Positions 19,724 to 52,734 of a stretch of DNA of 64,000 nt are shown one piece after another. Both the position numbers and the translations under genes were made by a program. The notes under the pieces are model-generated. The model made no database searches, was not told the DNA's origin, and was given only the letters and a program-made list of their open reading frames with translations. The stretch covers positions 65,748 through 129,747 of the forward strand of contig CAWGRP010000015.1 of NCBI GenBank assembly GCA_963825005.1, written 5' to 3'. How positions within the stretch are numbered: the stretch's first letter is position 1; every line of letters starts with the position of its first letter. Origin of the DNA: an uncultured delta proteobacterium (GTDB taxonomy: Bacteria > Desulfobacterota > Syntrophorhabdia > Syntrophorhabdales > WCHB1-27).

Positions 19724-19748
19724 GGCAAACCTCTCTCGTCCTTTTAGT

Positions 19749-20948: not shown

Positions 20949-21067
20949 GGTGCCCTCCCTTTTAGATTCTTTCATCCGCAAGTCTGAGAATTTTGTTCTA
21001 ACATTTTTGCCGGACTTTGCTTTTCCCTCAACCTCAATCTTAACCTTACGTTGTTAGACTTCTCGCT

Positions 21068-22018: not shown

Positions 22019-22026
22019 GGCGTCGA

Positions 22027-23242: not shown

Positions 23243-23268
23243 AAGTCAAACCCTCCCTGAATTAGACG

Positions 23269-24489: not shown

Positions 24490-24508
24490 AAGCGCACCTT
24501 TCTTTCGT

Positions 24509-33842: not shown

Positions 33843-34766
33843 ATGCTAACCAGTTTACCCGACTTTGAACATCATTTCTGTGCCACAGTTGGAGAAGCCT
33901 GTTCGCTTCTTGCAGCGTACAAGGGTGAAGCGAAGGTACTTGCCGGAGGCACAGACCTGCTGGTGAAGATGAAGCACAGGCGGATACTGCCCCGCTACCT
34001 CGTCAATATAAAAAGGGTGCCAGACCTTGACTATATTCGGTATGACGAAGCTGAAGGGCTTAAGATAGGGGCACTGACTACAATGCAGGCCATAAGAAAC
34101 TCCTCGCTCGTCATGAAGAAGTTTTCGTCTTTGGGTCAGGCTGCAGGTGTATTAGGGACGCCCCACGTCCGAAATATAGCAACACTTGGAGGCAATTTGT
34201 GCAATGCCTCTCCTGCCGCCGAATGCGCGCCTGCCCTGCTGACCTTAGGAGCGAAGGCCAAACTCGCCAGCCTCGAAGGAGAACGTGTTGTTCAGATGGA
34301 AGACTTCTTCTGCGGTCCCGGTAAGAGCATCCTCAATGAAAACGAGATCCTGACCGAGATACAGGTCCCGAATCTTCCTCAGTGGACTGCCAGCGTGCAC
34401 CTGAAATACGGTTCGCGAAGAGTAGATGTTGCGGTTGTGGGGGCCAGCATAGTGATGACGGTTGACGGCTGGAAATGTAAGGACGTGAAAATCGCGCTGA
34501 GCGCTGTGGGCCCTACACCCTTTCGGGCGAAGCGAGCCGAAAGTCTCCTCAGGGGGGAAATGCTCAACGGCGCGAAGGAGAGTTTGATTGAAAAAGTGGC
34601 CCAGGCGGCGATGGAGGAGTCATCGCCCATTGATGACATACGAGGGCATGCGGACCACAGGAGACATCTGGTCAAGTCACTGGTGGCGGATGGGGTTGAG
34701 CGGTTGATTTCCCAGATGATCTACCAGAGCGCAAGTTCTCGACCGTCTGTCGTGAAACTCAACTAA
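33843..34766 (+). CDS. FAD-binding subunit of the xanthine-oxidase/CO-dehydrogenase family (CoxM/XdhB type)
   Basis: 307 aa; VLAGGTDLLVKMK, ATLGGNLCNASPAAE, C-terminal CO-DH flavoprotein domain (DIRGHADHRRHLV). Confidence 0.85.
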   Translation: MLTSLPDFEHHFCATVGEACSLLAAYKGEAKVLAGGTDLLVKMKHRRILPRYLVNIKRVPDLDYIRYDEAEGLKIGALTTMQAIRNSSLVMKKFSSLGQAAGVLGTPHVRNIATLGGNLCNASPAAECAPALLTLGAKAKLASLEGERVVQMEDFFCGPGKSILNENEILTEIQVPNLPQWTASVHLKYGSRRVDVAVVGASIVMTVDGWKCKDVKIALSAVGPTPFRAKRAESLLRGEMLNGAKESLIEKVAQAAMEESSPIDDIRGHADHRRHLVKSLVADGVERLISQMIYQSASSRPSVVKLN

Positions 34767-35030: not shown

Positions 35031-35062
35031 GGCCAGTGGCTGTGAGGCAGGAGGATACAAGT

Positions 35063-37465
35063 ATGAAGCATCAGATTCATATAACGGTCAACGGCGAACA
35101 GCGCGATGTCACGGTAGAGTCGTCGCAAACCCTTCTTGATGTACTCAGAGATGAATTCAAGTTTTCAAGGACAAAAGAGGGCTGCGGCATAGGCGAGTGC
35201 GGAGCGTGTGCTGTTTCACTCGACAAGAAAATGGTGCCGTCCTGCATAGTGTTAGCCATTGATGCCGACAATAAGCAGGTGATCACGATGGAGGGTCTGT
35301 CCACCGATGCCCGGTTCGATCCGGTGATGGAATCGTTCATGCATCCGCAGCGCGGCGCCATGCACGCCAGCCACTCCAGACCGGGGACAAGAAAGAAACA
35401 CGAGGTGTTTACTTTTTGCCACGTCTGTCCGGGTCACTGCAGTATCAGGGCCATTGTAGAAGATGGGAAGCTGATCGATATAGAGCCTGACATGGAGAGC
35501 GGGTTGTGGAGCGAACAGTGCCCGGTGAAGAAAGGACGCTTCATCATACCGGATGTGCTTTCTCACGAAGACCGTCTGCTGTATCCAATGAAGAGGGTAG
35601 GGGCCAGAGGCGAGGGCAAGTGGCAGCGCATATCCTGGGATGAAGCGCTTGATACCATTGCAACGAAGTTCAGCCAGATCAAGGAGAAGTACGGGCCGGA
35701 AGCTGTTGCGTTCGGATTAGGCGAGCCGAAGGGCATGGAATTCGCCTATGGTCAGCGATTCGCTTCCGCCTTTGGTACGCCGACCGTGGTAACGCCCGCG
35801 TGGTTCTGCGGGGTCGCCGAACTGCAAGGTCAAGTGGCCACGTACGGCTGGAGCTCGGTCCCTGATGATCACCACACGCCCGAGGTGATAGTCATGTGGG
35901 GCTGCAACGCCAATCACACATCAGGCGCAATGAGGAGAGAGACGCTCGGTGCTAATATTCAGAAAGGCTCCAAACTCATCGTGGTCGATCCCATGAAGAC
36001 CGACTCCGCACGGGTGGCCGAGATCTGGATGAGACTGAAGCCGGGAAGCGACCTTGCTCTTGCCATGGGTATTTTAAAAGTCGTGGTTGAGGAGAAGCTG
36101 TACGATGAAGACATAGTTGCAAATTGGACAGTGGGATTCGACAAGCTGAAAGAGCATCTGGGAACGTTCTCCCTTGACGATGTTGAAAAAGTGACCTGGG
36201 TTCCAAGAAAACAGATCCAGGAATTTGCGAGACTCTACGGTCGGGCCGGATCGGCGGTAATCCAGGTGGGAAACGCCGTTGACATGCAGACCAACGGATT
36301 CCAAACCGTCAGGGCCATATCGATTTTGCGTGGCATTACCAATAACCTGAACGTTCGCGGCGGGGACGTATATGTTACGCCGGCGGGCTTCAGGCGGTTC
36401 GGCCATTTCTACCTGTTGAATAAATATCGTAGAAGAACGGACAAGATCCTTGGAGACAAATTCAAGATGTGTCAACGGATGGGCCTTATCCCGTCTCACA
36501 CGCTGGTTGATGCGATCCTGGATGAGAAGCCATATCCGGTCAAGGCTGCCTACTTTATCCTTACGAATCCACTCGTGAGTTGGCCTGATTCGAAGAGGAC
36601 GTATGAAGCGCTCATGAAGCTTGACTTCATCGTAACGCCTGAACTTTTCATGACGCCTACGGCAGCGCTTGCCGATATTGTCCTTCCGGCGGCCTGGGGT
36701 ATGGAGTGCGATGAACTCGGGTACTGGCCCGGATGGTACGGGGAGCTGAGAGCTCACCCCAAAGTTGTGGAGCCGCGCGGTGAATGCTGGTCGAATACGA
36801 AGATACTCAACGAGTTGGCCAAGCGGCTCGGCATGGGTGAGGATTTCTGGGAGGATGATGAAGAGGGCCTTGACGACATGGTCGAGCCCCTCGGCATGAC
36901 CTTTGAGCAGTTCAAAGATGAAAAAAGAACGATCATTCCGGAGCGGGAGTACGAGCAACATTTTTATACCACCCGCTCGGGCAGGCTGGAAATCTACTCT
37001 TCCCAGCTTGAGAGTATGGGTTACTCTCCCATGCCGCGGTTCGAAGAAGCGGTCGCCGGAACGCCTGTTGCGTCCGATGAATATCCGTTGCTCATGACGA
37101 ACGCGAAGGAAGAGGTGTACATGGGATCATCCTATTACCACGTCGCCTCGATTCGCAATATGAGGCCCTTTCCGGTCGTGGAGATGAACCCCGAAACAGG
37201 GCGCGAGAAAGGTCTCAAGGAGGGCGACTGGGTAACAATCGAAACAGCGGTGGGAAAGTGCAGGCAGAAGTTATCGTACAACAAGGACATCGATCCGAGG
37301 GTGGTTCTCGCTACGTTCTGCGCCTGGACACCCGAGAAGCCGGATGATGATTACGGCTGGCACACCGTAAACCTGAACATGGTCACCCCGAGCGGACCGG
37401 ATTACGACCCGCTCACAGGTGCGGTGACGTTGAGAGGCGTGCCGTGCAGGGTTGTACGTTCATAA
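35063..37465 (+). CDS. chimeric oxidoreductase: CoxS-type [2Fe-2S] domain fused to a bis-MGD molybdopterin (DMSO-reductase-family) catalytic subunit
   Basis: SD GGAGGA + ATG 35063. Residues 1-~90: MKHQIHITVNGEQRDV...EGCGIGECGACAV..VPSC (plant-type 2Fe-2S). The second-cluster motif is degraded (GAMHASHSRPG where GAxQCGxCTPG is expected). Then the MopB 4Fe-4S motif FCHVCPGHCSI...EQCP, RISWDEALDTIATKFSQIKEKYGPEAVAF, KLIVVDPMKTDSA, and the C-terminal MopB beta-barrel. Confidence 0.85.
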   Translation: MKHQIHITVNGEQRDVTVESSQTLLDVLRDEFKFSRTKEGCGIGECGACAVSLDKKMVPSCIVLAIDADNKQVITMEGLSTDARFDPVMESFMHPQRGAMHASHSRPGTRKKHEVFTFCHVCPGHCSIRAIVEDGKLIDIEPDMESGLWSEQCPVKKGRFIIPDVLSHEDRLLYPMKRVGARGEGKWQRISWDEALDTIATKFSQIKEKYGPEAVAFGLGEPKGMEFAYGQRFASAFGTPTVVTPAWFCGVAELQGQVATYGWSSVPDDHHTPEVIVMWGCNANHTSGAMRRETLGANIQKGSKLIVVDPMKTDSARVAEIWMRLKPGSDLALAMGILKVVVEEKLYDEDIVANWTVGFDKLKEHLGTFSLDDVEKVTWVPRKQIQEFARLYGRAGSAVIQVGNAVDMQTNGFQTVRAISILRGITNNLNVRGGDVYVTPAGFRRFGHFYLLNKYRRRTDKILGDKFKMCQRMGLIPSHTLVDAILDEKPYPVKAAYFILTNPLVSWPDSKRTYEALMKLDFIVTPELFMTPTAALADIVLPAAWGMECDELGYWPGWYGELRAHPKVVEPRGECWSNTKILNELAKRLGMGEDFWEDDEEGLDDMVEPLGMTFEQFKDEKRTIIPEREYEQHFYTTRSGRLEIYSSQLESMGYSPMPRFEEAVAGTPVASDEYPLLMTNAKEEVYMGSSYYHVASIRNMRPFPVVEMNPETGREKGLKEGDWVTIETAVGKCRQKLSYNKDIDPRVVLATFCAWTPEKPDDDYGWHTVNLNMVTPSGPDYDPLTGAVTLRGVPCRVVRS

Positions 37466-37530
37466 CGTTCGACGATCATCGATTGGAGTTCGTACCGTTC
37501 AATGAAATCGCTCGGAGAAATCTCTGACAG

Positions 37531-37574
37531 GATAGATTTCCTACGGGCAAGCCCGTGACCCGTGGAAATCTATC
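37531..37574. repeat. palindromic unit (11-bp stem), copy 1
   Basis: gatagatttcc-N22-ggaaatctatc. Sister copy at 37729-37764 (gaatagattttt...ggaaatctatc). Confidence 0.7.
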
Positions 37575-37577
37575 TAG

Positions 37578-37714
37578 TGTAGTGTTACAACAACGGCTTT
37601 ACAATGGTTTGAGGGCCGTCATTCCAGCGAAAGCTGGAATCCAGGTTGAAAAGACTGGATTCCGGATCAAGTCCGGAATGACACAGTGCCTAAAGTCATT
37701 CCTGTAACACTACA
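37578..37714. mobile_element. 137-bp MITE with 12-bp perfect TIRs and CTAG flanks
   Basis: tgtagtgttaca...tgtaacactaca flanked by CTAG on both sides. The sister palindromic unit shows the uninterrupted site atctatCTAGcgagc. The interior is a cruciform of gtcattccagcgaaagctggaatccag and ctggattccggatcaagtccggaatgac. Confidence 0.7.
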
Positions 37715-37766
37715 CTAGCGAGCCCCGGGAATAGATTTTTACGGGCAAGTCTGTGGAAATCTATCT

Positions 37767-37834
37767 AGCGAGCACGGCGAGCGAGAAGGGGAGGCTCCGG
37801 CGGCTTTGCCGCAGGAGGGGGCGACGCGAGCCCC
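37767..37834 (+). repeat. ~68-nt two-hairpin repeat in the leader of the accessory cassette (partner at 10181-10249)
   Basis: agcgagcacggcgagcgagaaggggaggctccggcggctttgccgcaggagggggcgacgcgagcccc. Ends 16 nt before ATG 37851. Confidence 0.75.
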
Positions 37835-37850
37835 GGGAATAGAGGGACAG

Positions 37851-38123
37851 ATGGAAGCACATGAACAGATATGTCTGCGTATACCAGAAGAAGTCGAGCA
37901 TCTCATGGAGCAACGGGGTATTCTGAAGCAGGACGTGCAGAAGGCAATTCACCATGCGGAGACAACCGGCGCAAAGTTCAATAACCCCTCCAACGGCCAT
38001 TGTCTCACATCGTACCGGCCGGACAGGGTTACGTACTGGGTGGAATACAGCCGCACCGATAACGAGTATCAGGTCCACAGCGCCTACTCCCATAGAATGG
38101 AAATGAAGAGAGGGCGTGGGTGA
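37851..38123 (+). CDS. small protein of unknown function (90 aa)
   Basis: MEAHEQICLRIPEEVEHLMEQRGILKQDVQKAIHHAETTG...YRPDRVTYWVEY...VHSAYSHRMEM. Stop overlaps the next start (TGATG). The track start 37806 lies inside the repeat, so ATG 37851 is preferred. Confidence 0.5.
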   Translation: MEAHEQICLRIPEEVEHLMEQRGILKQDVQKAIHHAETTGAKFNNPSNGHCLTSYRPDRVTYWVEYSRTDNEYQVHSAYSHRMEMKRGRG

Positions 38124-38335
38124 TGGCGGAAGGGGACAAATCAGGCGCTCAGGGCGAGTGGATATGTAACCTGTGCGGGATGCCGGCGAAGGTTCAAACC
38201 GTCAGACTGCAATATCTCAGGACCATATTTGCCCTCGATCTTCCTGCGTGTCCGCAATGCGGCATGATAATCATCGACGAAGAATTGGCAGTGGGAAAGA
38301 TGGCCGAGGCAGAGCAGACCCTCGAAGACAAGTAG
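38123..38335 (+). CDS. zinc-ribbon protein (YgiT-type CxxC...CxxC), 70 aa
   Basis: WICNLCG...(22 aa)...CPQCGMIIIDEELAVGKM. Translationally coupled to the upstream ORF. Confidence 0.55.
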   Translation: MAEGDKSGAQGEWICNLCGMPAKVQTVRLQYLRTIFALDLPACPQCGMIIIDEELAVGKMAEAEQTLEDK

Positions 38336-38359
38336 CCCTGACGGGTCGCCAGAGACTTG

Positions 38360-39085
38360 ATGATCGATTATCCGTTTACGTGCAAGGATCTTCGTCGCGC
38401 TGCGGGAAAATGCATGAGGCCCGGCGGAATAGTGCTTACTCAGAGGGCGCTCGATATTTGCAGCCTCTCTGACGGCTCCTCTGTAGCAGATATCGGCTGT
38501 GGCACCGGCGGAACCCTTACACACCTGGAACGGTCCGGCATTCACCGCCTGGTTGGAATTGACTTATCGGGCGACATGCTCTTAGAAGCTCTCCCGCAGA
38601 TGATCTCCGGGCAACTGGTAAAAGGTCGAGCACAGATTCTCCCTTTCAGAAATAGTTCATTCGATGCCCTCTTCTGTGAGTGCGTCCTTTCGCTTCTCGA
38701 CGACAAGGCCGCGGCAGTGCGAGAATCTGCCCGCGTGCTCAAAGATGGGGGATACCTTGTTCTGAGTGATCTCTTCGATGCCGGCGCCTCGGAAAGCCAA
38801 GCCGAGGGCTCTCATTCTCGGGGACCGGAGATGACGAAAGCATTCCCTTCAAAGGAATGCCTCCTCGATACGCTGTCACAGTTCGGGTTAGCACTTGTCC
38901 TGTGGGAGGAGCATGAACAATATCTCAGAGAATTCGTCGCTCGTCTGATTTTAGCCGGCGAATGGCTGACGGGTTTGCCATGCGGACAGGAACATCGCCG
39001 GAGAATCAGCTACTTTCTCCTGGTCGCCAGGAAGTCGGCCACACCTTTTCAGTCGGTAGCAACTGAAGGAGACGCTATGTCATGA
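38360..39085 (+). CDS. class I SAM-dependent methyltransferase
   Basis: Motif I VADIGCGTGGTL; post-I/II regions FDALFCECVLSLL, LKDGGYLVLSDL. Stop overlaps the next start (ATGA). Confidence 0.8.
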   Translation: MIDYPFTCKDLRRAAGKCMRPGGIVLTQRALDICSLSDGSSVADIGCGTGGTLTHLERSGIHRLVGIDLSGDMLLEALPQMISGQLVKGRAQILPFRNSSFDALFCECVLSLLDDKAAAVRESARVLKDGGYLVLSDLFDAGASESQAEGSHSRGPEMTKAFPSKECLLDTLSQFGLALVLWEEHEQYLREFVARLILAGEWLTGLPCGQEHRRRISYFLLVARKSATPFQSVATEGDAMS

Positions 39086-39525
39086 ATGATATGATCTTAC
39101 GCCTGGTGAGCCTGAAGGCCAAAGGGTTCTGCTGCGCTCAGGCCATCTTGATACTCGGACTGGAAGCGCAAGGTAAGGTTAACGTCGATCTGGTGAGATC
39201 CATGGCCGGCCTCTGTTACGGTATCAACTGGAGCGGCGAAGTCTGCGGAGCTCTCTCCGGGGGCGCCTGTCTTCTCTCGCTTTACTCAGGTAAGGGTACC
39301 TACCAGGAGGCGGCCAGCGACCAGCACACGAAAATGTTAGGCGAACTCGTGGAATGGTTTACGAGAGCGGCCGACGACCAGTACGGCGGCACGCGCTGCC
39401 ACGAAATTCTGGAAAAATTCCCCGATCGTAGTATGTGCGCCAAGATCGCAGCAGACACTTACAAGAAGTGTATGGATATCCTCGTGAGCCATGGGTTCGA
39501 TCCTGCTGTCGCCAAGGGGGAGTGA
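39082..39525 (+). CDS. C_GCAxxG_C_C family protein
   Basis: KGFCCAQAIL..., EVCGALSGGACLL, ...TRCHEIL...SMCAKIAADTYKKCMDIL (family-defining Cys pattern). Confidence 0.8.
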   Translation: MNDMILRLVSLKAKGFCCAQAILILGLEAQGKVNVDLVRSMAGLCYGINWSGEVCGALSGGACLLSLYSGKGTYQEAASDQHTKMLGELVEWFTRAADDQYGGTRCHEILEKFPDRSMCAKIAADTYKKCMDILVSHGFDPAVAKGE

Positions 39526-39530
39526 TCTTC

Positions 39531-40949
39531 ATGGATCAGGCGTACCCAAGTGACACCGAAAGTCTCTGCCCCGTGTGCCTCAGGAGAATTAAAGCAACAC
39601 GACTGCTCCGGGGAGACGAGGTGTCTCTCGTCAAGACATGCGGACATCACGGTTCCTTCAGCACCGTGATATGGCGCGGAGAGCCATCCATGGCACAATG
39701 GCAGAGAGCGAAGGATACTGTTCATCCAGACCTTTGCTACGGTACAGTTGAAAAGGGCTGCCCTTTCGACTGCGGCCTCTGCGCCGCCCATGAGCAGCTT
39801 CCCTGTTCAGTGCTGCTTGAGGTGACCGATCGCTGTAACTTGCGTTGCCCGGTCTGCTTCGCAGATTCTGGCTCAGCACCAAAACAAGAACCTTCATTAG
39901 AGAAGATCTCGTGGCTGCTTGAACGGGCAATGGCCTCCGCAGGACCGACCAATCTCCAGCTGTCGGGGGGTGAACCCACGCTGCGCGAGGATCTTCCCCA
40001 GATCGTGGAACGCGCGCGGCGCGTCGGCTATTCGTTCATTCAGCTCAATACAAACGGTCTCCTTCTTGCCTCTGATAGAAGCTACGCAAGAAGGCTCCAT
40101 GATGCCGGTCTGTCATCGGTCTTCCTTCAGTTCGATGGCGTGGACGATACTGTCTACCAGGCTCTGCGAGGGCGAGTCCTCTTTGAAGAAAAACTGAAGG
40201 CCATCCGGAACTGCGGGGAGAGCGGTCTTGGTGTTGTGTTAGTCCCCACACTGGTGGCAGGAGTAAACACCGGATCCATTGGCGCGATACTACGCCAAGC
40301 CCTGCACTTGGCACCTGTCGTGCGTGGCATTCATTTCCAGCCGGTGAGCTATTTCGGCCGCTTTCCGACCAAGGGTGGCGATCAAGATCGGTTCACGCTC
40401 CCGGAACTGATGAGAAGCCTTGAGGAACAGACAGAAGGCTTGGTCAGGGTAGCGGACTTTTCTCCTCCTGGCTGCGAGCATGCTCATTGCTCCTTCCACG
40501 CTACGTATGTGCGCTCCGCCAGGGGCGAATTGAAAGCACTAGGTGCGGCTAAGGATGATAGCTGCTGTTCGGCAGGGGTAAATACAGGAGGAGTAAGGAA
40601 AACGGTAGAGACAGTCTCACGCCGTTGGAGCTTGCCTTCCACATCGGCAACCGTCAAGGGGTTTATGTTGAAAGACGGGGCCGCAGCCTCCTGCTGCGAT
40701 CAGAGCAAACCTGACGCGGCGCGACACGACGGCGCTCTTGATCTGGATCTTTTTCTCCAGGAAGTCGCCTTACGAAGTTTTACCATATCTGCCATGGCTT
40801 TCCAGGATGCGGACAACCTCGATATGGAAAGGCTCAAGGGCTGCTGCATATCAGTCATATCTCCCGACGGCAGGCTGATCCCGTTCTGCGCGTATAATCT
40901 CACCAGCAGAGACGGAAGGAGTCTCTATCGCCGGCGAAACGGGTCATGA
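39531..40949 (+). CDS. radical SAM enzyme with N-terminal zinc ribbon and Cys-rich C-terminal extension
   Basis: CPVCLRR...CGHHG ribbon; GCPFDCGLC; radical SAM motif DRCNLRCPVCFA; SGGEPTL; C-terminal FTISAMAFQDADNLDMERLKGCCISV..DGRLIPFCAYN. Confidence 0.8.
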   Translation: MDQAYPSDTESLCPVCLRRIKATRLLRGDEVSLVKTCGHHGSFSTVIWRGEPSMAQWQRAKDTVHPDLCYGTVEKGCPFDCGLCAAHEQLPCSVLLEVTDRCNLRCPVCFADSGSAPKQEPSLEKISWLLERAMASAGPTNLQLSGGEPTLREDLPQIVERARRVGYSFIQLNTNGLLLASDRSYARRLHDAGLSSVFLQFDGVDDTVYQALRGRVLFEEKLKAIRNCGESGLGVVLVPTLVAGVNTGSIGAILRQALHLAPVVRGIHFQPVSYFGRFPTKGGDQDRFTLPELMRSLEEQTEGLVRVADFSPPGCEHAHCSFHATYVRSARGELKALGAAKDDSCCSAGVNTGGVRKTVETVSRRWSLPSTSATVKGFMLKDGAAASCCDQSKPDAARHDGALDLDLFLQEVALRSFTISAMAFQDADNLDMERLKGCCISVISPDGRLIPFCAYNLTSRDGRSLYRRRNGS

Positions 40950-40953
40950 CCTG

Positions 40954-42285
40954 ATGATCGCCATCACTCCACTTGAGCAATGGATCAGAAGAAAAGCGCA
41001 TATCACCTCAGAATTGGAAGGCCGTTCCTTTCTGAAAGCGCTTTCAGATTACCAGCTCCAGCGAGTGAACGAAACCATCAGCTACGCACGTCACAACAGC
41101 GCTTTTTACAGGCGTCATCTGGCTTCTTGCGCGACTGCGCCCCTGGCTACTCTTTCAGACATCGATCAAATTCCTTTTACCACTGCTTCAGATCTGACCC
41201 GAGATCCCTTTCGTTTCCTCGCGGTTCGTCAGGACGATGTAGCACGAATTGTCACTCTCCGCACATCAGGGAGCACAAGTGATCCCAAGCGCCTCTTTTT
41301 TTCTGACGACGATCTGGAGCTGACGATTGACTTCTTTCATCACGGCATGTCGACTATCGTTCGACCGGGGCAGAAAGTAGCAGTACTCCTTCCCAGCGAA
41401 CAAACCGACAGCGTGGGAGATCTTCTTATCAGGGGCCTTGGAAGAATGGACGTTGCCGCCCTTGCGTACGGGCCTGTCAAGGATCCTCTCCAGGCCATCC
41501 GCGACGTTGCCTCTTTTGGCGCCGATTGCGTGGTGGGTATCCCAACGCAGGTGCTCGCAATGGCCCGCTCATCACTGGGGCCGATCGGGAAAGGCTGCAT
41601 AGAAAGCGTTCTTTTGAGCACGGACTATGTCCCGCACGCGATCGTACGATCTCTGGAGGAGGTCTGGGGTTGCAGAGTATTCAATCATTACGGTATGACC
41701 GAGATGGGACTCGGAGGCGGGGTAGAGTGTGAGGCACTTGACGGATATCACCTCAGGGAGGGAGATCTCTACTTCGAGGTGGTCGATCATGAAACAGGCG
41801 CCAGGTGTCCCGACGGTGTGATGGGCGAGGTAGTCTTTACGACCCTCACGAGACGAGCCATGCCTCTCGTACGATACAGGACCGGCGACATGGGGCGGAT
41901 TATCCGCGAGTCCTGCCCCTGCGGCAGCGCTCTGAGGAGGATGGAGCGCGTCAAGGGCAGGTGGGATGGCGCTTTTCGCCTGGGTCCTGAATCTACTCTG
42001 ATGCTCTCCGATATGGATGAAGCGCTGTTCCGGCTTCCGGACCTGCTCGATTACCGGGTTACACTCTCAGAATGCAAGGACGGAAGGTTCCGGCTTCATA
42101 TCGATGTATGCAGGGCAGAAGATGGCAACACAACTTCCCGCGAAATCCTGCAAATGCTCAGCGAGGTCGACGCGATACAAAAAGCTATTACCACTGCGAA
42201 CCTGGAGATACCCCTCGTGCGTTTCTCGGAAGAGGGACGCTCGACCAGTAATGGCGTAGTGAAAAGAAAGCTACGTTGTGTATAA
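40954..42285 (+). CDS. PaaK / coenzyme-F390-synthetase-type adenylate-forming ligase
   Basis: 443 aa; RTSGSTSDPKRLFFS (AMP-binding P-loop), NHYGMTEMG, YRTGDMGR, C-terminal small domain. Confidence 0.8.
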   Translation: MIAITPLEQWIRRKAHITSELEGRSFLKALSDYQLQRVNETISYARHNSAFYRRHLASCATAPLATLSDIDQIPFTTASDLTRDPFRFLAVRQDDVARIVTLRTSGSTSDPKRLFFSDDDLELTIDFFHHGMSTIVRPGQKVAVLLPSEQTDSVGDLLIRGLGRMDVAALAYGPVKDPLQAIRDVASFGADCVVGIPTQVLAMARSSLGPIGKGCIESVLLSTDYVPHAIVRSLEEVWGCRVFNHYGMTEMGLGGGVECEALDGYHLREGDLYFEVVDHETGARCPDGVMGEVVFTTLTRRAMPLVRYRTGDMGRIIRESCPCGSALRRMERVKGRWDGAFRLGPESTLMLSDMDEALFRLPDLLDYRVTLSECKDGRFRLHIDVCRAEDGNTTSREILQMLSEVDAIQKAITTANLEIPLVRFSEEGRSTSNGVVKRKLRCV

Positions 42286-42295: not shown

Positions 42296-42503
42296 CGGTG
42301 GTTGATAGTCAAGGATATTTCTATCCGCATCAGGAGAAAATTATGGAAGCTCTCCAGTCCGATGTGGTACTGTCAACGGGCGGCGTATCGATGGGGAAGT
42401 ACGATTTCGTTAAAGATACGTATTCCGATCTGGATGTCGAGATGTGGAACTGAATGCAGGAGAGAAAGTCGCTATTCAATTGATCGATCATGACGAGATA
42501 TAG
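42296..42503 (+). pseudogene. moeA: moeA relic (about 50 codons of domain III plus about 20 codons of the C-terminal domain; the rest deleted)
   Basis: Own translation: ..HQEKIMEALQSDVVLSTGGVSMGKYDFVKDTYSDLDVEMWN* (frame 1). It is then joined out of frame to ..ELNAGEKVAIQLIDHDEI*. The canonical MoeA GGVSxGxxD motif is present. Confidence 0.6.
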
Positions 42504-42536: not shown

Positions 42537-43778
42537 ATGAAAGAAATGTCTCTTGGTTTAGCCGAGGCGTTGCGAATGACGCTCCAGGCCATAAGCCCGC
42601 TTCCCGCCGAGAGCGTTTCCCTGGTTGAAAGTGTAGACCGGGTGGCTGCCTCAGACCTTTACGCACTCGTGGATTCCCCCTCCACGGATGTCTCCCTCAA
42701 AGATGGCTATGCAGTGCTATCCCGTGACATAGACCATGCGACTCCCGAAAATCCGGTGCGGCTGCCGCTCATTGGTTCTATAGCCGCAGGAAGTGCAACG
42801 GAGATTCAGATCAGGCCGGGGACGGCGGTAAGGGTATTGTCAGGAGCACGCATCCCTTCCGGTGCTGACGCTGTGGTGGCCGAAGAATTTGTTAAACGGC
42901 CGGATGGTAATCTGCAGGATGTGCTGGTAGAGACCTTTGCTGAACCCGGAAGGAATATCCTGCCGCGCGCCAGTGACGTGGCATTGCGGGAATGTATTCT
43001 CCGGTCAGGCCAACCAATATCGCCGGCCATGGCCGGTCTTCTCGCCGCTGCGGGACACAGCGCGATACCTGTCTTCAGAAATCCGGTCGTGGGGATTATC
43101 GGAACCGGGGACGAAATCGTTGAGGCGGGCGAGCCTGCCGCGGAAGGCAAGCTCTATGCGAGTAATATCGTTACCGTGGCAGGGTGGTGCAAGAAATATA
43201 ACATGGAACCTCACATGATAGTTAGCCGAGATGATCCTGATGCCATCTTGAGCGCTCTGAAAACCGTCTCCGACGAGACGGACGCTGTGATAACGAGCGG
43301 AGGGGCGTGGACTGGAGACCACGACGTAGTGGCCAGGGTGCTTAAAGAAATCGGATGGAAACAGGTCTTCCACCGCATCCGCATAGGGCCGGGCAAGGCA
43401 GTCGGCTTCGGCATGCTGCATAAGAAACCGGTTTTTATTCTGCCTGGCGGGCCTCCCTCGAATCTGATGGCTTTTCTGCAGATCGCCTTGCCCGGCCTCC
43501 TTGCACTCTCCGGCCACAAAGAGCAGGGCTTGCCCGTAATTAATGCAAGGCTCGCCTCCGAACTCAAAGAGGGTGATCCCGCGTGGACCGATTTTTTCTT
43601 CGGCATTGTTGAATCTACTGAAGGACTGCCGATTTTTCACCCTATGAAAAAGCGCACGCGATTGAGCTTGATCGCCGAGGCTACGGCAATCGCGTCGATA
43701 CCGGAAGGAGAAGATTCTCTACCGGAGGGATCCGTGATTACTATTCAATTACTGAAGCAGACAGTCGGTGGATGTTGA
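42537..43778 (+). CDS. moeA: molybdopterin molybdenumtransferase MoeA paralogue (divergent)
   Basis: 413 aa; SLKDGYAV, RVLSGARIPSGADAVV, IIGTGDEIV, SGGAWTGDHD (variant of GGVSxGxxD), IGPGKAVGFG, FILPGGPPS. Confidence 0.85.
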   Translation: MKEMSLGLAEALRMTLQAISPLPAESVSLVESVDRVAASDLYALVDSPSTDVSLKDGYAVLSRDIDHATPENPVRLPLIGSIAAGSATEIQIRPGTAVRVLSGARIPSGADAVVAEEFVKRPDGNLQDVLVETFAEPGRNILPRASDVALRECILRSGQPISPAMAGLLAAAGHSAIPVFRNPVVGIIGTGDEIVEAGEPAAEGKLYASNIVTVAGWCKKYNMEPHMIVSRDDPDAILSALKTVSDETDAVITSGGAWTGDHDVVARVLKEIGWKQVFHRIRIGPGKAVGFGMLHKKPVFILPGGPPSNLMAFLQIALPGLLALSGHKEQGLPVINARLASELKEGDPAWTDFFFGIVESTEGLPIFHPMKKRTRLSLIAEATAIASIPEGEDSLPEGSVITIQLLKQTVGGC

Positions 43779-43807: not shown

Positions 43808-44269
43808 GTGCTGATGCAGAACCTTACGACCAGAGGAACAGTAGAAGCCATCTGGATTAAGAGAGGTAAAGGTGAGCCCATGGATTCGGTTCCATCGGCC
43901 AAGCTCATTGCCGGGCGAGGTATTGCCGGCAACGCCGACCAGGGCGGGAAAAGGCAGGTTACCATAATCGAGCAAGAGGTCTGGGATCAATTAATGGAGC
44001 AGGTCGGAGGCTCACAACCTGCAAGCGCGCGACGCGCTAACCTCATGGTCAGTGGCATCCGCCTCGTCGACAGCCAGGACAGGATTCTACGAGTGGGCTC
44101 CTGCCGGATAAGAATACACGGAGAGACAAAACCGTGCCGAAGGATGGAGGATACAGTTGAAGGATTGCGGGGAGCAATGGAGGACGGAGGATGGAAGGGC
44201 GGTGCTTATGGAGAAGTGATTGAGGGTGGAGAAATATCAGTCGGCGATCCGGCCTTCTGGGAAGAATAG
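43808..44269 (+). CDS. MOSC-domain protein (Moco sulfurase C-terminal domain family)
   Basis: ~150 aa; RQVTIIEQE, ARRANLMVSG, RIHGETKPCRRME (conserved Cys). Confidence 0.75.
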   Translation: MLMQNLTTRGTVEAIWIKRGKGEPMDSVPSAKLIAGRGIAGNADQGGKRQVTIIEQEVWDQLMEQVGGSQPASARRANLMVSGIRLVDSQDRILRVGSCRIRIHGETKPCRRMEDTVEGLRGAMEDGGWKGGAYGEVIEGGEISVGDPAFWEE

Positions 44270-44500: not shown

Positions 44501-44833
44501 ATGGCTGAATATTATGAGAAGAAGGATCTTGAAGATTTCGTAAACATCGGGGAGTACGCGCCGGAATTAGGAAAGAAATATTTCGACTATTACGGCGAGG
44601 CCATGAAGGCGGGTGCGCTCAGCGAGCGGGAAAAGACGCTCATTGCGCTGGTGGTGGCGACGACGCAGAAATGCCCGTACTGCATCGACGCGTACACGAA
44701 CCAGTGTTTATCTCTGGGCATAACGCGGCAGGAAATGATGGAAGCCGAGCACGTAGGCGCGGCCATGGTGGCAGGCATCGTACTGGCTCACACCACGCAG
44801 ATGCGCAAAATAGTCAAGAAGAAGGAGATGTGA
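44501..44833 (+). CDS. AhpD-like / carboxymuconolactone-decarboxylase-family CxxC protein (the type paired with ArsS-like radical SAM enzymes)
   Basis: SD AAGGAG; 110 aa; LSEREKTLIALVVATTQKCPYCIDAY. Confidence 0.75.
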   Translation: MAEYYEKKDLEDFVNIGEYAPELGKKYFDYYGEAMKAGALSEREKTLIALVVATTQKCPYCIDAYTNQCLSLGITRQEMMEAEHVGAAMVAGIVLAHTTQMRKIVKKKEM

Positions 44834-44835
44834 GC

Positions 44836-45783
44836 GTGAGTTTTTCCTTCGCAGATCGGGTATCACCACCGCTTACGGCTGAGGAGATCAGTATTCTCCA
44901 GGTCAATGTCGGGTACCGTTGCAACCTGGCGTGCAGGCATTGCCATATCAACGCGGGCCCGCAGCGGCGCGAGATGATGTCGAAGGAGGTAATGGAGCAG
45001 TGCCTCAGGATCCTGAAGAGTCATCCCATACCCGCAATCGATATTACGGGCGGGAGTCCCGAGATGCATCCCCGGATCGAATGGTTCCTCAAGGAGTGCG
45101 CGGCTCTGAAGCGTCGGCTGCTCGTGAGAACGAACGGAGTGATTCTGCTGGAGAAGGATTACGAATCTTTCATCGATCTTTACGCCGACAATCGGATAGA
45201 GGTCGTGATATCCTTGCCGCACATGGATCCTCATGTGACGGACCGCCAGAGGGGAGAGGGTGTCTTCCCGAAACTGATTGAGGCGATCCGCAGGCTCAAC
45301 GTGCGAGGCTACGGGCAGTCCGGGAGCGGTCTTCTCCTCGATCTGGTCCATAACCCCGGCGGTGCGTACCTGCCCGGTTCACAGGCCGCACTGGAGGCTT
45401 CGTATCGCCGTACACTCGAGGCCAGGCACGGGGTTACATTTAATCATCTCTTCTGTATAACGAATATGCCGATCGGCCGTTATCTGGATTACCTGTGGAA
45501 GACGGACAATTACGAGGAGTACATGACAGCCCTGGTGAATGCTTTCAATCCAGCCGCCCTGGGCAAGGTGATGTGCAGGACAACGCTTTCCGTTGCCTGG
45601 GATGGAAGACTCTACGACTGCGACTTCAATCAGGTGCTTGGTCTCCCCATCTGTCACAGCGCTCCCGGCCATGTTTCCGCCTTTGACCTGCACGAACTGG
45701 CGCACCGCCGGATATCAACCGGCGACCACTGTTACGGCTGCACTGCGGGCGCGGGAAGTTCGTGCCAGGGAGAAGTTGCCTGA
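44836..45783 (+). CDS. ArsS-type radical SAM / Cys-rich-domain protein
   Basis: GTG start about 8 nt after GGAG; VGYRCNLACRHCH; ITGGSPEMHP; C-terminal DHCYGCTAGAGSSCQG motif. Confidence 0.8.
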   Translation: MSFSFADRVSPPLTAEEISILQVNVGYRCNLACRHCHINAGPQRREMMSKEVMEQCLRILKSHPIPAIDITGGSPEMHPRIEWFLKECAALKRRLLVRTNGVILLEKDYESFIDLYADNRIEVVISLPHMDPHVTDRQRGEGVFPKLIEAIRRLNVRGYGQSGSGLLLDLVHNPGGAYLPGSQAALEASYRRTLEARHGVTFNHLFCITNMPIGRYLDYLWKTDNYEEYMTALVNAFNPAALGKVMCRTTLSVAWDGRLYDCDFNQVLGLPICHSAPGHVSAFDLHELAHRRISTGDHCYGCTAGAGSSCQGEVA

Positions 45784-48532: not shown

Positions 48533-49054
48533 TTACTGCCGCGATGAAGAGTGCGCCTGCGCACCGAGAGGTTTCGTTTCAACACCCCACGTGCTCAATC
48601 GTTGCGCGACTGCCGCGATGATTGCTTCCAGACGGTCTTGCAGAACGTCCGTTAATTCGATACCAATGTCGATCGATTTTGGCTGGATGCCGACGAGGTA
48701 GATTTCGGACGGTAGCGTATCGCTTATCTTTGCGGCAAACAATAGATCGGCGAGCCCCACGTGGTGCACCGAACCTTGTGCGCTCAGAAAGGAAGGGAGC
48801 TCATTCCCTTCCATGAGCACAATTTCTCCGGGCGACTCTCCGGCATCGACTGCGTCCACAAAGATCACCCTTTCGTAAAGATCCATTACCGGGAGCAGAT
48901 CGAGTCCTGCTGTGCCTCCGTCGATCAGATCGATGTGCGGTTGAAAGCGGTACAGCTTCTCCATCGCTTCTATAGTGCGAATGCCGACAGCGTCATCTTG
49001 CATGAGGAGGTTGCCCAGCCCGATAACGCAGATCTCATATCGATTTGTATTCAT
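48533..49054 (-). CDS. [NiFe] hydrogenase maturation endopeptidase (HyaD/HybD type)
   Basis: From MNTNRYEICVIGLGNLLMQDDAVG...; FVDAVD; GSVHHVGL. The track start 49150 lies inside a repeat. Confidence 0.85.
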   Translation of the reverse strand: MNTNRYEICVIGLGNLLMQDDAVGIRTIEAMEKLYRFQPHIDLIDGGTAGLDLLPVMDLYERVIFVDAVDAGESPGEIVLMEGNELPSFLSAQGSVHHVGLADLLFAAKISDTLPSEIYLVGIQPKSIDIGIELTDVLQDRLEAIIAAVAQRLSTWGVETKPLGAQAHSSSRQ

Positions 49055-49085
49055 GTGGACGACCCAGCCTTCGGCCGGGTGCCCC

Positions 49086-49160
49086 GGGCGGCAGCGAGGA
49101 GTTGACGCAGGCGTACTGTAAGTACGTCGAGGAGAACGACGCAGCGACAACGAAGGTATG
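49086..49160. repeat. second copy of the core shared with 25818-25963
   Basis: gggcggcagcgaggagttgacgcaggcgtactgtaagtacgtcgaggagaacgacgcagcgacaacgaaggtatg. Sits between the cytochrome b stop and the protease start. Confidence 0.75.
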
Positions 49161-49180
49161 CACGTGAAGACAAATCGATA

Positions 49181-49855
49181 TTATTCTTCACGGCAGGTCT
49201 TGTGGCCTGAGAATATCGAACTCATCACGCAGTTATCTTCCACCAGGTCGGTTGTCCAGCCGATGTACATGTGGACGATAGGGAAGACGATCAGGAACCA
49301 CATGATGAAGTGGTGAACAAGCCGAACCTCCTGGACAGGGAAATAGGGGAGTATCCAGCCGCCCACGATTTTCCAGAAAAGCCCCACGTGACTCTGCGAC
49401 ATCAGCGCAAAGCCGGTCAGTATGGAAACGAGATAACCAAGAAAGAGCACCATATACGATATTCCGGCGAGGACCGAATGGCCCAGGACGAAAGGCGGAC
49501 GGTCATTCAGAAGGAAATAGAACCGAAGATCGTAGTAAAGTTCCCTGATGCGTTCCCTGTTGTAAGGGATCAGGGCGCTCCAGCGCGCGTACCGGTTGCC
49601 CACAAAACCCCAGTAGATCCTGAGCAGGACTCCCATGGCGAAGACATATCCCGCCGAAAAGTGTATCAGCCTCATCCAGCCCATGACGAACTGATTGTTT
49701 GGATTGGCGCCGTAGAACAACGGGGATACGCTGTCTATGTACGGGTGACCTATGTAGTAGCCGGTAAAACTCAAAATTATGAGACAGGCTGCATTCACCC
49801 AGTGGGACAGGCGGACCGGCAGTTCCCAGATATAAACGTCGGTCAGCTTTAACAT
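49181..49855 (-). CDS. [NiFe] hydrogenase b-type cytochrome subunit
   Basis: 224 aa, four TM helices; LSHWVNA...; position after the large subunit. Confidence 0.85.
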   Translation of the reverse strand: MLKLTDVYIWELPVRLSHWVNAACLIILSFTGYYIGHPYIDSVSPLFYGANPNNQFVMGWMRLIHFSAGYVFAMGVLLRIYWGFVGNRYARWSALIPYNRERIRELYYDLRFYFLLNDRPPFVLGHSVLAGISYMVLFLGYLVSILTGFALMSQSHVGLFWKIVGGWILPYFPVQEVRLVHHFIMWFLIVFPIVHMYIGWTTDLVEDNCVMSSIFSGHKTCREE

Positions 49856-49858
49856 CGG

Positions 49859-51568
49859 TCAGGTTCCCCTTGCCGTTGTTTTGGGCCTTCCCTTCACGTC
49901 GGTCACGTGGACCGCGCAGGCCATGCATGGATCAAAGGAATGGACTGTCCTGAGGATCTCGAGCGGTCTGTCCGGATCTGCCACAGGTGTCCCGATGAGC
50001 GAGGCTTCTACGGGTCCTCTTATTCCCTTCGCATCCCTCGGAGAGAGATTCCAGGTGGACGGCACAACAGCCTGGTAATTGGTGATCTTTCCGTCCCTGA
50101 TCCCCACCCAGTGGCCCAGGGCCCCGCGAGGCGCGTCATGGAAGCCGTACCCTTTTGCCTCCTTGGGCCAGGTGCCCGGTTCCCATTTCTCATTCTGACA
50201 TATGCGGAAATCGCCTTTCTTGATGGTGGAAACAAGCTCTCCTATAAAACCCGGTATCATCTCCGCTATAATCAGTGTTTCTATGGCGCGCGCCGCGACT
50301 CGACCCAGTGTCGAAAAAAGCGCATCCGGCGTGATCTGAAGCTTTTGCAGCACCATGTCAACGGTTTCTTTGATTTGTTTGTGGCCTGTCGCGTATGCAA
50401 CAAGCACGCGAGCAAGGGGACCCACCTCGATCGCCATCTCTTCGTAACGGGGTGTCTTGAGCCAGCTGTACTTCGCCTGCGTGTCGAGATGCTCATACGG
50501 AGGCTTGGGTCCGGTATACGCCGGCTTTGTCTCACCATCCCACGGGTGCTTTCCCTTTTGATCGCCGTCTTGATAGTCGTACCATGAGTGGGTCACGTAC
50601 TCCGCGATCTTCTTCTGATCAACCGGCAGGATCCTGGTCAGATCTCTTTGAAGGATGATCCCTTTCGGCAGTTGAACGTTATCGGTGTTGCTCCGGTTGT
50701 CTCTCGGAAACTCGCCGTACGTCATGTAATTGCCGACGCCGCCGCCGTAGCCGGCCCAGTCTTTGTAATAGGAAGCTATGGCAATAACGTCAGGAATGTA
50801 GACCTTGCTGACAAAGTCGATGGCCTGTTGTGCGACCTGGGACATGAGCGCAATCGCATCGGCATTGATGGCGTTCTGACTCGCGGGATCGACGGGTCGT
50901 GCTATTCCTCCCACGAGGTACGTCTGCAGGTGCGGGTTCTTCGATCCGAGGAGGGCATGCACTTTGACGACGCCTCTTTGCCACTCGAGGGCTTCAAGAT
51001 AGTGAGCCACGCCGAGCAGATTCACTTCGGGCGGTAGCTTGTATGCGGGATGTCCCCAGTAGCCGTTCGCAAAGGGGCCGAGCTGCCCTGTATCGACCAG
51101 GCCCTTCACGCGTTTCTGCACTATCGTGAAAAAGGCGGCGCCTGAGTTCGGCCAGTCTGACAATGACTGAGCAATGGATGCTGTCTTCGCAGGATCCGCC
51201 TTTAAGGCGCTTACAATATCGATCCAGTCGAGTCCGTGGAGATGGTAGAAGTGGATCACGTGATCCTGCACGTACTGCACGGCGGCGATGATGTTGCGTA
51301 TGATGCGCGCATTGTCAGGAATCGTCATACCCAGCGCGTCTTCCACTGCGCGGACAGAGGCAAGCGCGTGAACCGTCGTGCAGACACCGCAGATCCTCTG
51401 GCAGAAGAGCCAGGCATCCCTCGGATCGCGGTCCTTGAGCACGATCTCGATGCCTCTGAACATGGTGCTCGACGACCATGCATCAACCACTTTTCCGTTC
51501 TCAACCTGTGCCTCGATGCGCAGGTGGCCTTCCAGACGCGTTACAGGATCAATGACTATTCGTGCCAT
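49859..51568 (-). CDS. group-1 [NiFe] hydrogenase large subunit
   Basis: [35 protein letters not shown]-terminal DPCMACAVH + 15-aa extension (Cys, not Sec). ATG 51568 preceded by GGAAGGG and overlapping the small-subunit stop. Confidence 0.95.
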
Positions 51569-52689
51569 TGCGGACCCTTCCATTCTTTTTTGGGTTGAGC
51601 CTTTGTCGGTTCTTTCGCCTCTTCTTTGGGCTTGCGGACCCGCTTGAGCAGCCTTGCTGCGGTGTGGATAAGGATACCGCCCACTGTTGCGGAAGTGACC
51701 GCGAGGCCTACTTTGTCCGCGGTTGTTTCCACGGTGATGCCGAAAGGCTGCGGAAGCCTCCTGTAGAAGGGAGTCATCTGATCCCAGAAGTCGGGTGCGG
51801 CGCACGCGATGCACCCGTGCCCGGATTGCACGGGCCAGCTGGTGCGCTCATTGTATTTGACGGTGGGACAGTTCTGATAGGCTTCGGGTCCTTTGCACCC
51901 CATGTAGTAGAGGCACCAGCCGAGACGATGTCCATCGTCGCCCCATTGCCTTACATACTGTCCTGCATCGAAATGGGAGCGTCTCTCGCAATTGTCATGA
52001 ATCCTCTTGCCGTAAGCAAAAAGCGGCCGTCCCAGAGCATCCAGCGCAGGAAGTACACCGAATGTGAGATAGTAAACGATCGCGGCAGTTATGTTCTCAG
52101 CGTTGACAGGACAGCCGGCGAGATTGATGACGGTTGCTCCGGGCACTGCATCGCGCACGCCCACAGCGCCTGTGGGATTGGGGTGTGCTTTCGGGATGCC
52201 TCCGAACGTGGCGCAGGTTCCCATGGCGAAGGTGGCAATGGCGCTCCCGCAGACTTCCCGGACGATATCGACGGAGCTGCGGCCTCCGATACAGCAATAG
52301 GCACCGTTTTCTCCGAGAGGAATCGAGCCCTCGACCGCGGCGAAGTAATTCCCTTTGTGATTTTTAAGCACGTCGGCAAGGGACTTCTCAGCCTGTTTGC
52401 CGGCCGCAGCCATGATGGTCTCGCTGTAGTCGAGGGAGAGCACGTCAAGGATCAGCTCGCTTGCAGTCGGTTTTGAAGCCCTGAGCAGCGCTTCCGTATC
52501 GCCTGTGCAGCTCTGACACTCAATCCAGACAAGGATCGGTTTCTTCTTTGTCTCAAGTGCGTTGGCAATCCTGGGGACGTAGCTTGAAGAGAGCCCGAGC
52601 ACGGCGGCACAAGCCGTGCAATATTTGAGAAAATCCCTGCGGTTGACACCCCGGTCGAGCAGTTCTGCGAGCAGATTATCAACGGCCAT
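51556..52689 (-). CDS. group-1 [NiFe] hydrogenase small subunit (Tat-exported, C-terminal anchor)
   Basis: Tat motif NRRDFLK; [15 protein letters not shown]; C-terminal helix [27 protein letters not shown] before ATG 52689. Confidence 0.95.
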
Positions 52690-52734
52690 CGACCCTCCTC
52701 TCTCAGCTGCCACTGATTGAACTCAATTAAAAAA

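Follow-up and report, generated by a model that had tools for sequence, protein, structure and literature searches.

Which task in the cell brings together a radical S-adenosylmethionine (SAM) enzyme, a methyltransferase, an adenylate-forming ligase and three smaller proteins in a single run of genes? The question is raised by a locus in an uncultured delta proteobacterium, at positions 37851–42285 of a 64-kb stretch of contig CAWGRP010000015.1 that is referred to here as the window. The six open reading frames (ORFs) of the locus are labelled g1 to g6, and each coordinate below was checked directly on the letters of the sequence:

37851–38123, plus strand: g1, 90 aa, homologous to the C-terminal domain of NF045663, with a predicted RelE/DUF4258-like fold
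38123–38335, plus strand: g2, 70 aa, zinc-ribbon protein of the DVU_1557 family/DUF7479
38360–39085, plus strand: g3, 241 aa, class I SAM methyltransferase of the DVU_1556 family
39082–39525, plus strand: g4, 147 aa, C-GCAxxG-C-C protein of the DVU_1555 family, putatively redox-active or metal-binding
39531–40949, plus strand: g5, 472 aa, TrsS, a Tes-like radical SAM enzyme in its all-Cys form
40954–42285, plus strand: g6, 443 aa, PaaK-like adenylate-forming ligase of the DVU_1553 family

The stop codon of g1 (TGA, 38121–38123) overlaps the start codon of g2 (ATG, 38123–38125) to give TGATG, and the ATGA at 39082–39085 is common to the stop of g3 and the start of g4. Gaps of 24 nt (38336–38359), 5 nt and 4 nt precede the ATG codons of g3 (38360), g5 (39531) and g6 (40954), respectively, with GGGGGAG lying 10–16 nt 5′ of the ATG of g5. 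No promoter-like or terminator-like sites were found inside the six-gene block. The six ORFs and five junctions described in an initial annotation of this DNA are thus all where it had placed them. That annotation had also spoken of two Cys-rich small proteins, which is right for the 70-aa g2, with its four invariant Cys, and wrong for the 90-aa g1, which has no conserved Cys; the second Cys-rich small protein is instead the 147-aa g4, with five conserved Cys.

Comparison with other genomes indicates that this arrangement is not accidental. A pattern scan of one genome per species returned at least 582 relatives of TrsS, and 80 of their loci were fetched and analysed by tblastn and ORF clustering. 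They come from Desulfobacterota, Chloroflexota, Nitrospirota, Acidobacteriota, Firmicutes (Desulfosporosinus, Sporomusa, Pelosinus and Desulfotomaculum) and one alphaproteobacterial metagenome-assembled genome (MAG), among others. Three loci (L011, L055 and L060) hold TrsS paralogues outside a cassette and were left out of the generalisation. The order g1, g2, methyltransferase, C-GCAxxG-C-C protein, TrsS, ligase is kept in about 70 of the 80 loci, the 4-nt overlap of g1 and g2 recurs in 39 of 62, and the distance between TrsS and the ligase is 10 nt or less in 89% of 73. Because the same six genes stand in the same order in so many other genomes, and because their tight junctions are conserved as well, the arrangement is non-random, and the best explanation is that the six genes form one operon-like module, the TrsS/DVU_1553–1557 cassette.

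What the module is for is best approached through the company it keeps. The initial annotation had tied the cassette to molybdoenzymes and asked whether homologous cassettes always neighbour a gene for one; the answer is that they nearly always do. Full flanks, meaning at least 8 kb on the upstream side and 6 kb on the downstream side, were available for 49 loci; a molybdenum or tungsten (Mo/W) pterin enzyme is encoded in 46 of these, and the other three hold XdhC together with a MocA-like gene, or ModC. The loci fall into two clearly distinct contexts according to the identity of TrsS to that of the window, at 59–73% in what we call clade A and 46–54% in clade B. The layout of clade B is fixed: a MoeA-like gene, a Mop-type aldehyde oxidoreductase (NF045668) and an NF045663 protein carrying g1 as its C-terminal domain are followed by g2, the methyltransferase, the C-GCAxxG-C-C protein, TrsS and the ligase, and then by an XdhC-family AOR maturation factor (NF045664), the MocA-like NTP transferase DVU_1551 (NF045665), a CobC-like phosphatase and often ModBC. 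In clade A, which includes Geobacter, Syntrophorhabdaceae, Syntrophus and others, the cassette lies within 6 kb of a 656-aa BamB-like AFOR with a BamC-like partner, often with MoeA as well; MoeA adjoins the cassette in seven clade A loci, and in G. pickeringii the cassette is directly upstream of a bamBCDEFGHI-like cluster.

The link is also backed by regulatory RNA. Aptamers of the molybdenum/tungsten cofactor (Moco/Wco) riboswitch (RF01055) head the operon of enzyme plus cassette at L005 (4160–4499; clade A), at L012 (clade A) and at L052 (1564–2218; clade B), and a Moco-II RNA does so at L027 (1799–1843). L012 has three tandem aptamers at 5376–5937 and three more besides, making six in 19 kb. 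Three enzyme families are served in all: Mop, BamB-like AFOR and bis-molybdopterin guanine dinucleotide (bis-MGD) enzymes related to acetylene hydratase. The last is the case in the window, where the cassette is flanked by a bis-MGD enzyme on its 5′ side and by MoeA and a MOSC-domain protein on its 3′ side. This pairing recurs in a Geobacter MAG (L014), in which a second, partial set on the minus strand at 7589–11339 comprises a DVU_1553-like ligase, a g1–g2 fusion of 159 aa with LEDK at its end, and a bis-MGD enzyme of 685 aa that shares 32% identity with that of the window; the same MAG also has a canonical cassette beside an AFOR.

Since the cassette is nearly always found beside a Mo/W enzyme, we favour an explanation in which it is a dedicated accessory system of Mo/W pyranopterin oxidoreductases, acting in the maturation of cofactor or enzyme or in building or servicing a redox partner, and is not a free-standing metabolic pathway. 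In this specific form the explanation has, in our judgement, about an even chance of being correct. The molybdoenzyme link itself is upheld, and the cassette probably helps Mo/W enzymes to mature or to work.

None of the components is new to the catalogues. For five of the six proteins, the score exceeds the curated cut-off of an NCBIfam model from the set made for the DVU_1551–1557 neighbourhood of D. vulgaris:

g2: DVU_1557 family, NF045645, 87 bits (cut-off 60)
g3: DVU_1556 methyltransferase, NF045667, 187 bits (cut-off 155)
g4: DVU_1555 C-GCAxxG-C-C protein, NF045669, 156 bits (cut-off 103)
g5: radical SAM (seleno)protein TrsS, NF045646, 642.3 bits over residues 8–467 (cut-off 490)
g6: DVU_1553 AMP-dependent ligase, NF045666, 458 bits (cut-off 300)

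The partners of TrsS, namely the DVU_1553, 1555, 1556 and 1557 family genes, are thus all adjacent to it in the window and all above cut-off, and the domain calls of the initial annotation (a radical SAM enzyme with an N-terminal CxxC...CxxH ribbon, a class I methyltransferase and a PaaK/F390-type adenylating ligase) agree with both NCBIfam and Pfam. TrsS is listed as a selenoprotein family, an entry attributed to Haft and Tolstoy, 2025 (mSystems 10:e0141724), as cited in PMC13188914. The cassette is therefore an already catalogued gene set, and the copy in the window extends a known, functionally uncharacterised system to a variant context. It resembles the NCBIfam reference neighbourhood in its five proteins above cut-off and its identical gene order, and departs from it in several respects: its proteins are all-Cys forms without selenocysteine (Sec); its g1 is a free 90-aa protein, where the reference has it as the tail of NF045663; it has no XdhC, DVU_1551 NTP transferase, CobC-like phosphatase or Mop; and its neighbour is a [2Fe-2S]::bis-MGD enzyme in place of Mop or a BamB-like AFOR. 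There is also a likeness to the XdhC/MocA/MoeA-type Moco maturation operons of xanthine-oxidase-family enzymes, some of which are controlled by Moco riboswitches. The clade B cassette is embedded in such operons and the window cassette adjoins MoeA and MOSC genes, but no known family of Moco biosynthesis includes any of the six cassette proteins; TrsS matches the GTP 3′,8-cyclase MoaA over the radical SAM core only, at 81–91 bits, where the cut-offs are 231–325.

By sequence the window cassette belongs to clade A, and neither an AFOR nor a Mop-type enzyme was found beside it. Its immediate neighbours are as follows:

33843–34766, plus strand: CoxM/XdhB-type FAD-binding subunit (FAD_binding_5, CO_deh_flav_C; XdhB 229 bits)
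35036–37465, plus strand: fusion of an XdhC/CoxS-type [2Fe-2S] domain to a bis-MGD enzyme of the DMSO-reductase family, with its likely start at ATG 35063 (Fer2, Molybdopterin, Molydop_binding)
42298–42453, plus strand: MoeA/MoCF-type remnant of 51 codons between the ligase and the intact MoeA (PF00994, 27.5 bits, profile positions 47–80 only)
42537–43778, plus strand: MoeA molybdopterin molybdotransferase (MoeA_N, MoCF_biosynth, MoeA_C)
43808–44269, plus strand: MOSC-domain protein (PF03473, E = 7e-12)

Among solved structures the fusion enzyme comes closest to that of acetylene hydratase, a tungsten enzyme (2e7z, E = 3e-92), and Cys258 of the fusion aligns with the Sec of genes resembling formate dehydrogenase. 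It has lost the second [2Fe-2S] domain and carries the MopB [4Fe-4S] domain in its place, giving, with the CoxM-type subunit, a hybrid electron chain of two Mo-enzyme families. A search of a representative library had made the fusion seem unique; this proved wrong, as a word-index search gave more than 120 full-length clusters, and the family is widespread and unnamed. The MoeA remnant is a sign of past rearrangement at the 3′ end of the cassette.

The neighbours also bear on a different account, in which the cassette would be a small-molecule pathway concerned with the adjacent enzyme's substrate and not with its cofactor: the product of the ligase, an aryl- or acyl-CoA (or acyl-AMP), would be transformed by the Mo/W enzyme or by TrsS, and the other proteins would tailor the metabolite. 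The relatives of g6 make this a natural thought, since the ligase is closest to phenylacetate-CoA ligases; its best matches in the Protein Data Bank (PDB) are the PaaK structures 4r1l and 2y27, with which it shares fold and family, and it conserves a P-loop-like TSGSTSDPK, K437 and a CPCG motif. Benzoyl-CoA is the substrate of BamB, and Mop and AOR interconvert aldehydes and acids. Moreover, the [2Fe-2S]::bis-MGD family of the window is elsewhere always preceded by an AMP-binding CoA ligase (three genomes) that is missing here. More broadly that family travels with AMP-binding CoA ligases and with UbiD or enoyl-CoA hydratase, and these companions suggest, on the basis of gene context, that its own substrate may be an aryl- or acyl-CoA. 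Against a substrate pathway, however, one cassette serves enzymes of three families that are unrelated and act on different substrates, and in clade B it is interleaved with the XdhC and MocA-like maturation genes. The ligase scores 125–146 bits against the PaaK equivalog models, far below their cut-offs of 646–700, and g1, g2 and the C-GCAxxG-C-C protein would be left without a role. We therefore regard a substrate pathway as unlikely.

TrsS aligns with the tetraether lipid synthase GDGT-MAS/Tes (7TOL, E = 2e-86) over residues 8–312, with many identical positions, and again over residues 410–460. Aligned in this way it retains all four metal sites of Tes (MJ0619; PDB 7TOL and 7TOM): a rubredoxin-type site CX2CX20CX2H (C13/C16/C37/H40), a [4Fe-4S]N site of three Cys and one His (C77/C81/C84/H87), the radical SAM motif CX3CX2C (C102/C106/C109), and a C-terminal auxiliary-cluster segment (M422, C438 and C453) in which Met422 is the equivalent of the labile Met439 of Tes. 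The window gene has no in-frame TGA that might encode Sec, and none was found in trsS at the 80 loci; the family name permits Cys forms. The AlphaFold2 (AF2) model of TrsS is poor, with a predicted local distance difference test (pLDDT) score of 57.

With GDGT-MAS/Tes as the only characterised relative and four metal sites common to both, it might be supposed that TrsS is a bacterial Tes orthologue and that the cassette makes membrane-spanning or otherwise cross-linked lipids. This is very unlikely. TrsS reaches 337.4 bits against the Tes model NF045702, over residues 9–328 only, where the cut-off is 450. The lipid-pocket region of Tes (about 331–446) is replaced by a Cys-rich insert (residues 313–409, with HCSFH, SCCS and CC motifs) that cannot be aligned with it, and the strictly conserved Tyr459 of Tes, beside the substrate, aligns with an invariant Val442 of TrsS. 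Unlike that of Tes, the genomic context of TrsS is one of Mo/W enzymes and not of lipid synthesis, and lipid genes were not found in the conserved neighbourhood. TrsS is a paralogue of this lipid synthase and not of a pterin enzyme. The initial annotation had pointed to archaeal enzymes of the same architecture that act on pterins and lipids, but the pterin half of this precedent falls: the annotation of MJ0619 as a pterin methylase was not reproducible, the enzyme is the lipid synthase GDGT-MAS/Tes, and the sole characterised relative of TrsS accordingly acts on lipids (PMC9433317). We likewise rejected a pterin link by way of the Pfam ‘HMPTM zinc ribbon’ and JGI ‘pterin dimethyltransferase’ labels, both of which descend from the same irreproducible annotation (PMC9433317). 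The authors who described Tes remarked that bacterial homologues of unknown function exist, and TrsS is one such group. A separate subfamily of bacterial Tes homologues appears at L055 (9968–12145), where a protein of 725 aa, in which DUF5714 is joined to a TrsS-like radical SAM enzyme, stands alone without a cassette.

The two smallest proteins are considered next. g1 matches the last 85 residues (profile positions 674–758 of 759) of NF045663 at E = 2e-30 and 105 bits; the cut-off of 530 bits, set for a full-length architecture of about 760 aa, is not reached. It is thus a free-standing copy of the C-terminal domain of NF045663, a family of pyridine-nucleotide-disulfide oxidoreductase/dicluster-binding proteins. 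g1 is fused to g2 in Geobacter and to the NF045663 oxidoreductase in clade B, and is either free or fused to g2 in clade A. It has no Pfam match, and a profile search against the PDB returned only noise. Its AF2 model (pLDDT 88) has an alpha-alpha-beta4 topology, with two helices and a four-stranded sheet, for which the top 25 Foldseek matches are nearly all RelE, HigB, ParE and MqsR toxins, though weak ones (best E 0.016, TM-scores of 0.4–0.6); DUF4258 is matched by 10 of 41 g1 homologues, at best with E = 1.4e-4. Conserved residues are R22, D28, E37, W63, E65, Y66, Y79, H81 and R82. The partner protein g2, in turn, also matches the YgiT (MqsA-N)-type zinc finger and PF24292, and has rubredoxin-like knuckles (WxCxxCG, CPxCG) in which C16, C19, C44 and C47 are invariant. 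Among sequences that are only 35–70% identical, the last four residues of g2 before the stop codon are LEDK at 70 of 72 loci and IEDK at one other.

There is in these features a likeness, weak and at the level of fold only, to the MqsR/MqsA and DUF4258/YgiT toxin–antitoxin pairs, in which a RelE-superfamily-like alpha-alpha-beta4 protein is likewise followed, with a 4-nt overlap, by a four-Cys YgiT-type ribbon. Such resemblances of fold and family could mean that g1 and g2 are a mere toxin–antitoxin pair (a DUF4258/RelE-like toxin with a YgiT-type antitoxin) that landed beside the other four genes. We consider this extremely improbable, given that the pair stands at the same point of the cassette in about 70 loci from different phyla, forms a single protein in Geobacter and is joined to an oxidoreductase in clade B, and that g2 lacks a helix-turn-helix domain. 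g2 has no DNA-binding domain, and the pair occurs fused to redox enzymes and at a constant place in a biosynthetic operon; as far as sequences and models can tell, g1 and g2 look like a domesticated docking pair of toxin–antitoxin type.

The invariant terminus of g2 suggests that the tail itself may reach into an active site, where it could be a docking motif, carrier arm or substrate. One analogy is with the small zinc-ribbon amino-group carrier LysW and the precursors of mycofactocin and PQQ, also small proteins with an invariant C-terminal tail and with the gene for an ATP-dependent ligase, a radical SAM enzyme or both alongside; the cassette differs in that its ligase is of the ANL type and not ATP-grasp, its tail ends in Lys and not in Glu or Tyr, and its radical SAM enzyme is Tes-like and not of the SPASM type. 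Pressed further, the analogy would make g2 a ribosomal precursor, as in mycofactocin and PQQ biosynthesis, whose C-terminus is modified by TrsS, the ligase and the methyltransferase to yield a peptide-derived or protein-bound redox cofactor for the neighbouring oxidoreductases. The invariance of LEDK among such divergent sequences and the tight coupling of a radical SAM gene in the same operon would fit, as would g1 if it were a recognition domain, fused as it is to an oxidoreductase in most genomes. But TrsS is a Tes paralogue and no SPASM/RRE-type peptide maturase was found, nor was a conserved peptidase found in the neighbourhood; and g2 is a folded zinc ribbon with rubredoxin-like knuckles, so that a plain role as an electron carrier would also account for its conservation. 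A precursor role for g2 is, in our estimation, unlikely.

A bolder proposal combines these elements with the Mo/W context. The LEDK C-terminus of g2 would be the site at which a new protein-borne prosthetic group is attached or modified, this group being built by the ligase, by TrsS (which would join an unactivated carbon through a C-S or C-C bond) and by the methyltransferase; the domesticated RelE-like g1 would then dock it onto Mo/W enzymes such as the Mop, BamB-type and acetylene-hydratase-type ones, at their reductase or catalytic subunit. We offer this as a speculation with a small chance of being right, which, if true, would make the group on g2 a previously unrecognised cofactor or ‘swinging arm’ for anaerobic Mo/W enzymes.

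The remaining two proteins are the methyltransferase and the C-GCAxxG-C-C protein. g3 matches Methyltransf_11 in Pfam, and in its family the SAM motif DxGCGxG is invariant, as is a Glu-Cys pair (E108, C109) on the strand that follows the SAM-binding fold; a second Cys lies 50 residues beyond C109 in 70% of the DVU_1556 family. This spacing recalls the metalloid-binding Cys pair of ArsM, the sequence similarity being generic. g4 matches PF09719, and no relative with a solved structure was found. A role in metalloid handling, or in the synthesis of organoarsenic or organoselenium compounds after the manner of ArsS/ArsM and ArsL/ArsM, pairs in which a radical SAM enzyme works with ArsM, has to be considered, and its purpose might be the protection of arsenite-sensitive Mo enzymes. 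Besides the Cys pair, the next-best NCBIfam matches of the methyltransferase are ArsM-type (about 50 bits), selenoprotein forms exist in the TrsS and C-GCAxxG-C-C families (as their names indicate; PMC13188914), and ArsS is encoded 2.5 kb downstream in the window. Yet the similarity to ArsM is no better than to BioC or UbiE, ArsM structures are not among the PDB matches, the window methyltransferase has Met at the second Cys position, and ArsS is not a conserved neighbour. Metalloid handling is thus highly improbable as the function of the cassette.

Returning to the accessory system that we favour, a hypothetical sequence of steps can be sketched in which every protein has a part. The RelE-like g1 domain, which in most genomes is the C-terminal domain of an NAD(P)H/CCG-cluster oxidoreductase beside the Mo enzyme, would dock the zinc ribbon of g2. 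The latter would serve as a rubredoxin-like electron donor, or else as a carrier or substrate with chemistry at its invariant LEDK tail. The PaaK-like ligase would activate a carboxylate to the acyl-AMP; TrsS, acting as Tes does, would take a hydrogen atom from an unactivated carbon and, with its C-terminal auxiliary [4Fe-4S] cluster, form a C-S or C-C bond; and the methyltransferase would cap the product. The C-GCAxxG-C-C protein may supply or repair sulfur, electrons or a cluster. As the initial annotation also supposed, the substrate may be of the size of a cofactor, and adenylation, radical chemistry and methylation may all take place on one molecule.

Several observations weigh against an accessory role in Mo/W enzymes. 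In the window itself, a spacer of 385 nt (37466–37850) containing an element that resembles a miniature inverted-repeat transposable element (MITE) parts the fusion enzyme from g1. In the three other genomes sampled, moreover, the fusion-enzyme family occurs without the cassette, forming a trio of CoA ligase, FAD subunit and enzyme of which the AMP-binding CoA ligase is missing in the window. Because of this spacer and these cassette-free relatives, adjacency in the window is weaker evidence than at other loci, though it is consistent with the general rule. Neither a Moco riboswitch nor any other Rfam family was found in the window. The RelE-like assignment of g1, on which the docking step depends, is weak, as the Foldseek values above indicate. 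A literature search found no functional data for the locus tags DVU1552–1559 or Gmet_2088–2093, and no experimental work on any cassette member or on the cassette beside bamB in Geobacter. Finally, Mop from D. gigas and BamB from G. metallireducens, both purified in native form, reportedly show ordinary pterin cofactors in their high-resolution structures, and a covalent change to the mature cofactor is for this reason unlikely.

Other features of the window may be described briefly. The MITE-like element (37574–37718) has 28-nt terminal inverted repeats that are 86% complementary and a core encoding a common ‘PAKAGIQ’ repeat ORF; it is flanked by duplicated segments of 16–18 nt and is the sole copy in the window. 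On the 3′ side, 2.5 kb from the cassette, an arsenosugar-type pair at 44501–45783 consists of an AhpD-like ‘peroxidase’ (TIGR04169) and the radical SAM (seleno)protein ArsS (TIGR04167, Cys form). A purine-catabolism cluster with a selenium-dependent molybdenum hydroxylase occupies 8702–24564 on the minus strand and encodes xanthine permease, YgfK, D-hydantoinase, SsnA, a selenium-dependent xanthine dehydrogenase (XDH), Rid, YgeW, carbamate kinase, YgeY and diaminopropionate ammonia-lyase. This XDH, about 20 kb upstream of the cassette, is the only xanthine-oxidase-family gene in the 64 kb. It is split across three reading frames (19250–18741, 18712–17597 and 17325–16705), and only the C-terminal half of YgeY is found in one ORF, which points to frameshifts, pseudogenes or assembly errors. 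An apparent [NiFe] hydrogenase operon at 48533–52713 on the minus strand, read from translations only, comprises a small subunit with a Tat-like leader, a large subunit ending in DPCMACAVH, cytochrome b and a maturation protease.

Hundreds of anaerobe species carry the cassette, among them sulfate reducers, Geobacter, syntrophs, Firmicutes, Chloroflexota and Nitrospirota, and it is wired into the operons of three Mo/W enzyme families, one being that of the tungsten benzoyl-CoA reductase type. One consequence concerns surveys of lipid biomarkers, in which TrsS is close enough to Tes (E about 2e-86) to be miscounted as a bacterial tetraether synthase. If the cassette is indeed a system for maturing Mo/W enzymes or building their partners, it would be a missing piece of the biology of these enzymes and would likely be needed to produce them in heterologous hosts; it would also provide a second, non-lipid substrate for the radical SAM chemistry of the Tes type.

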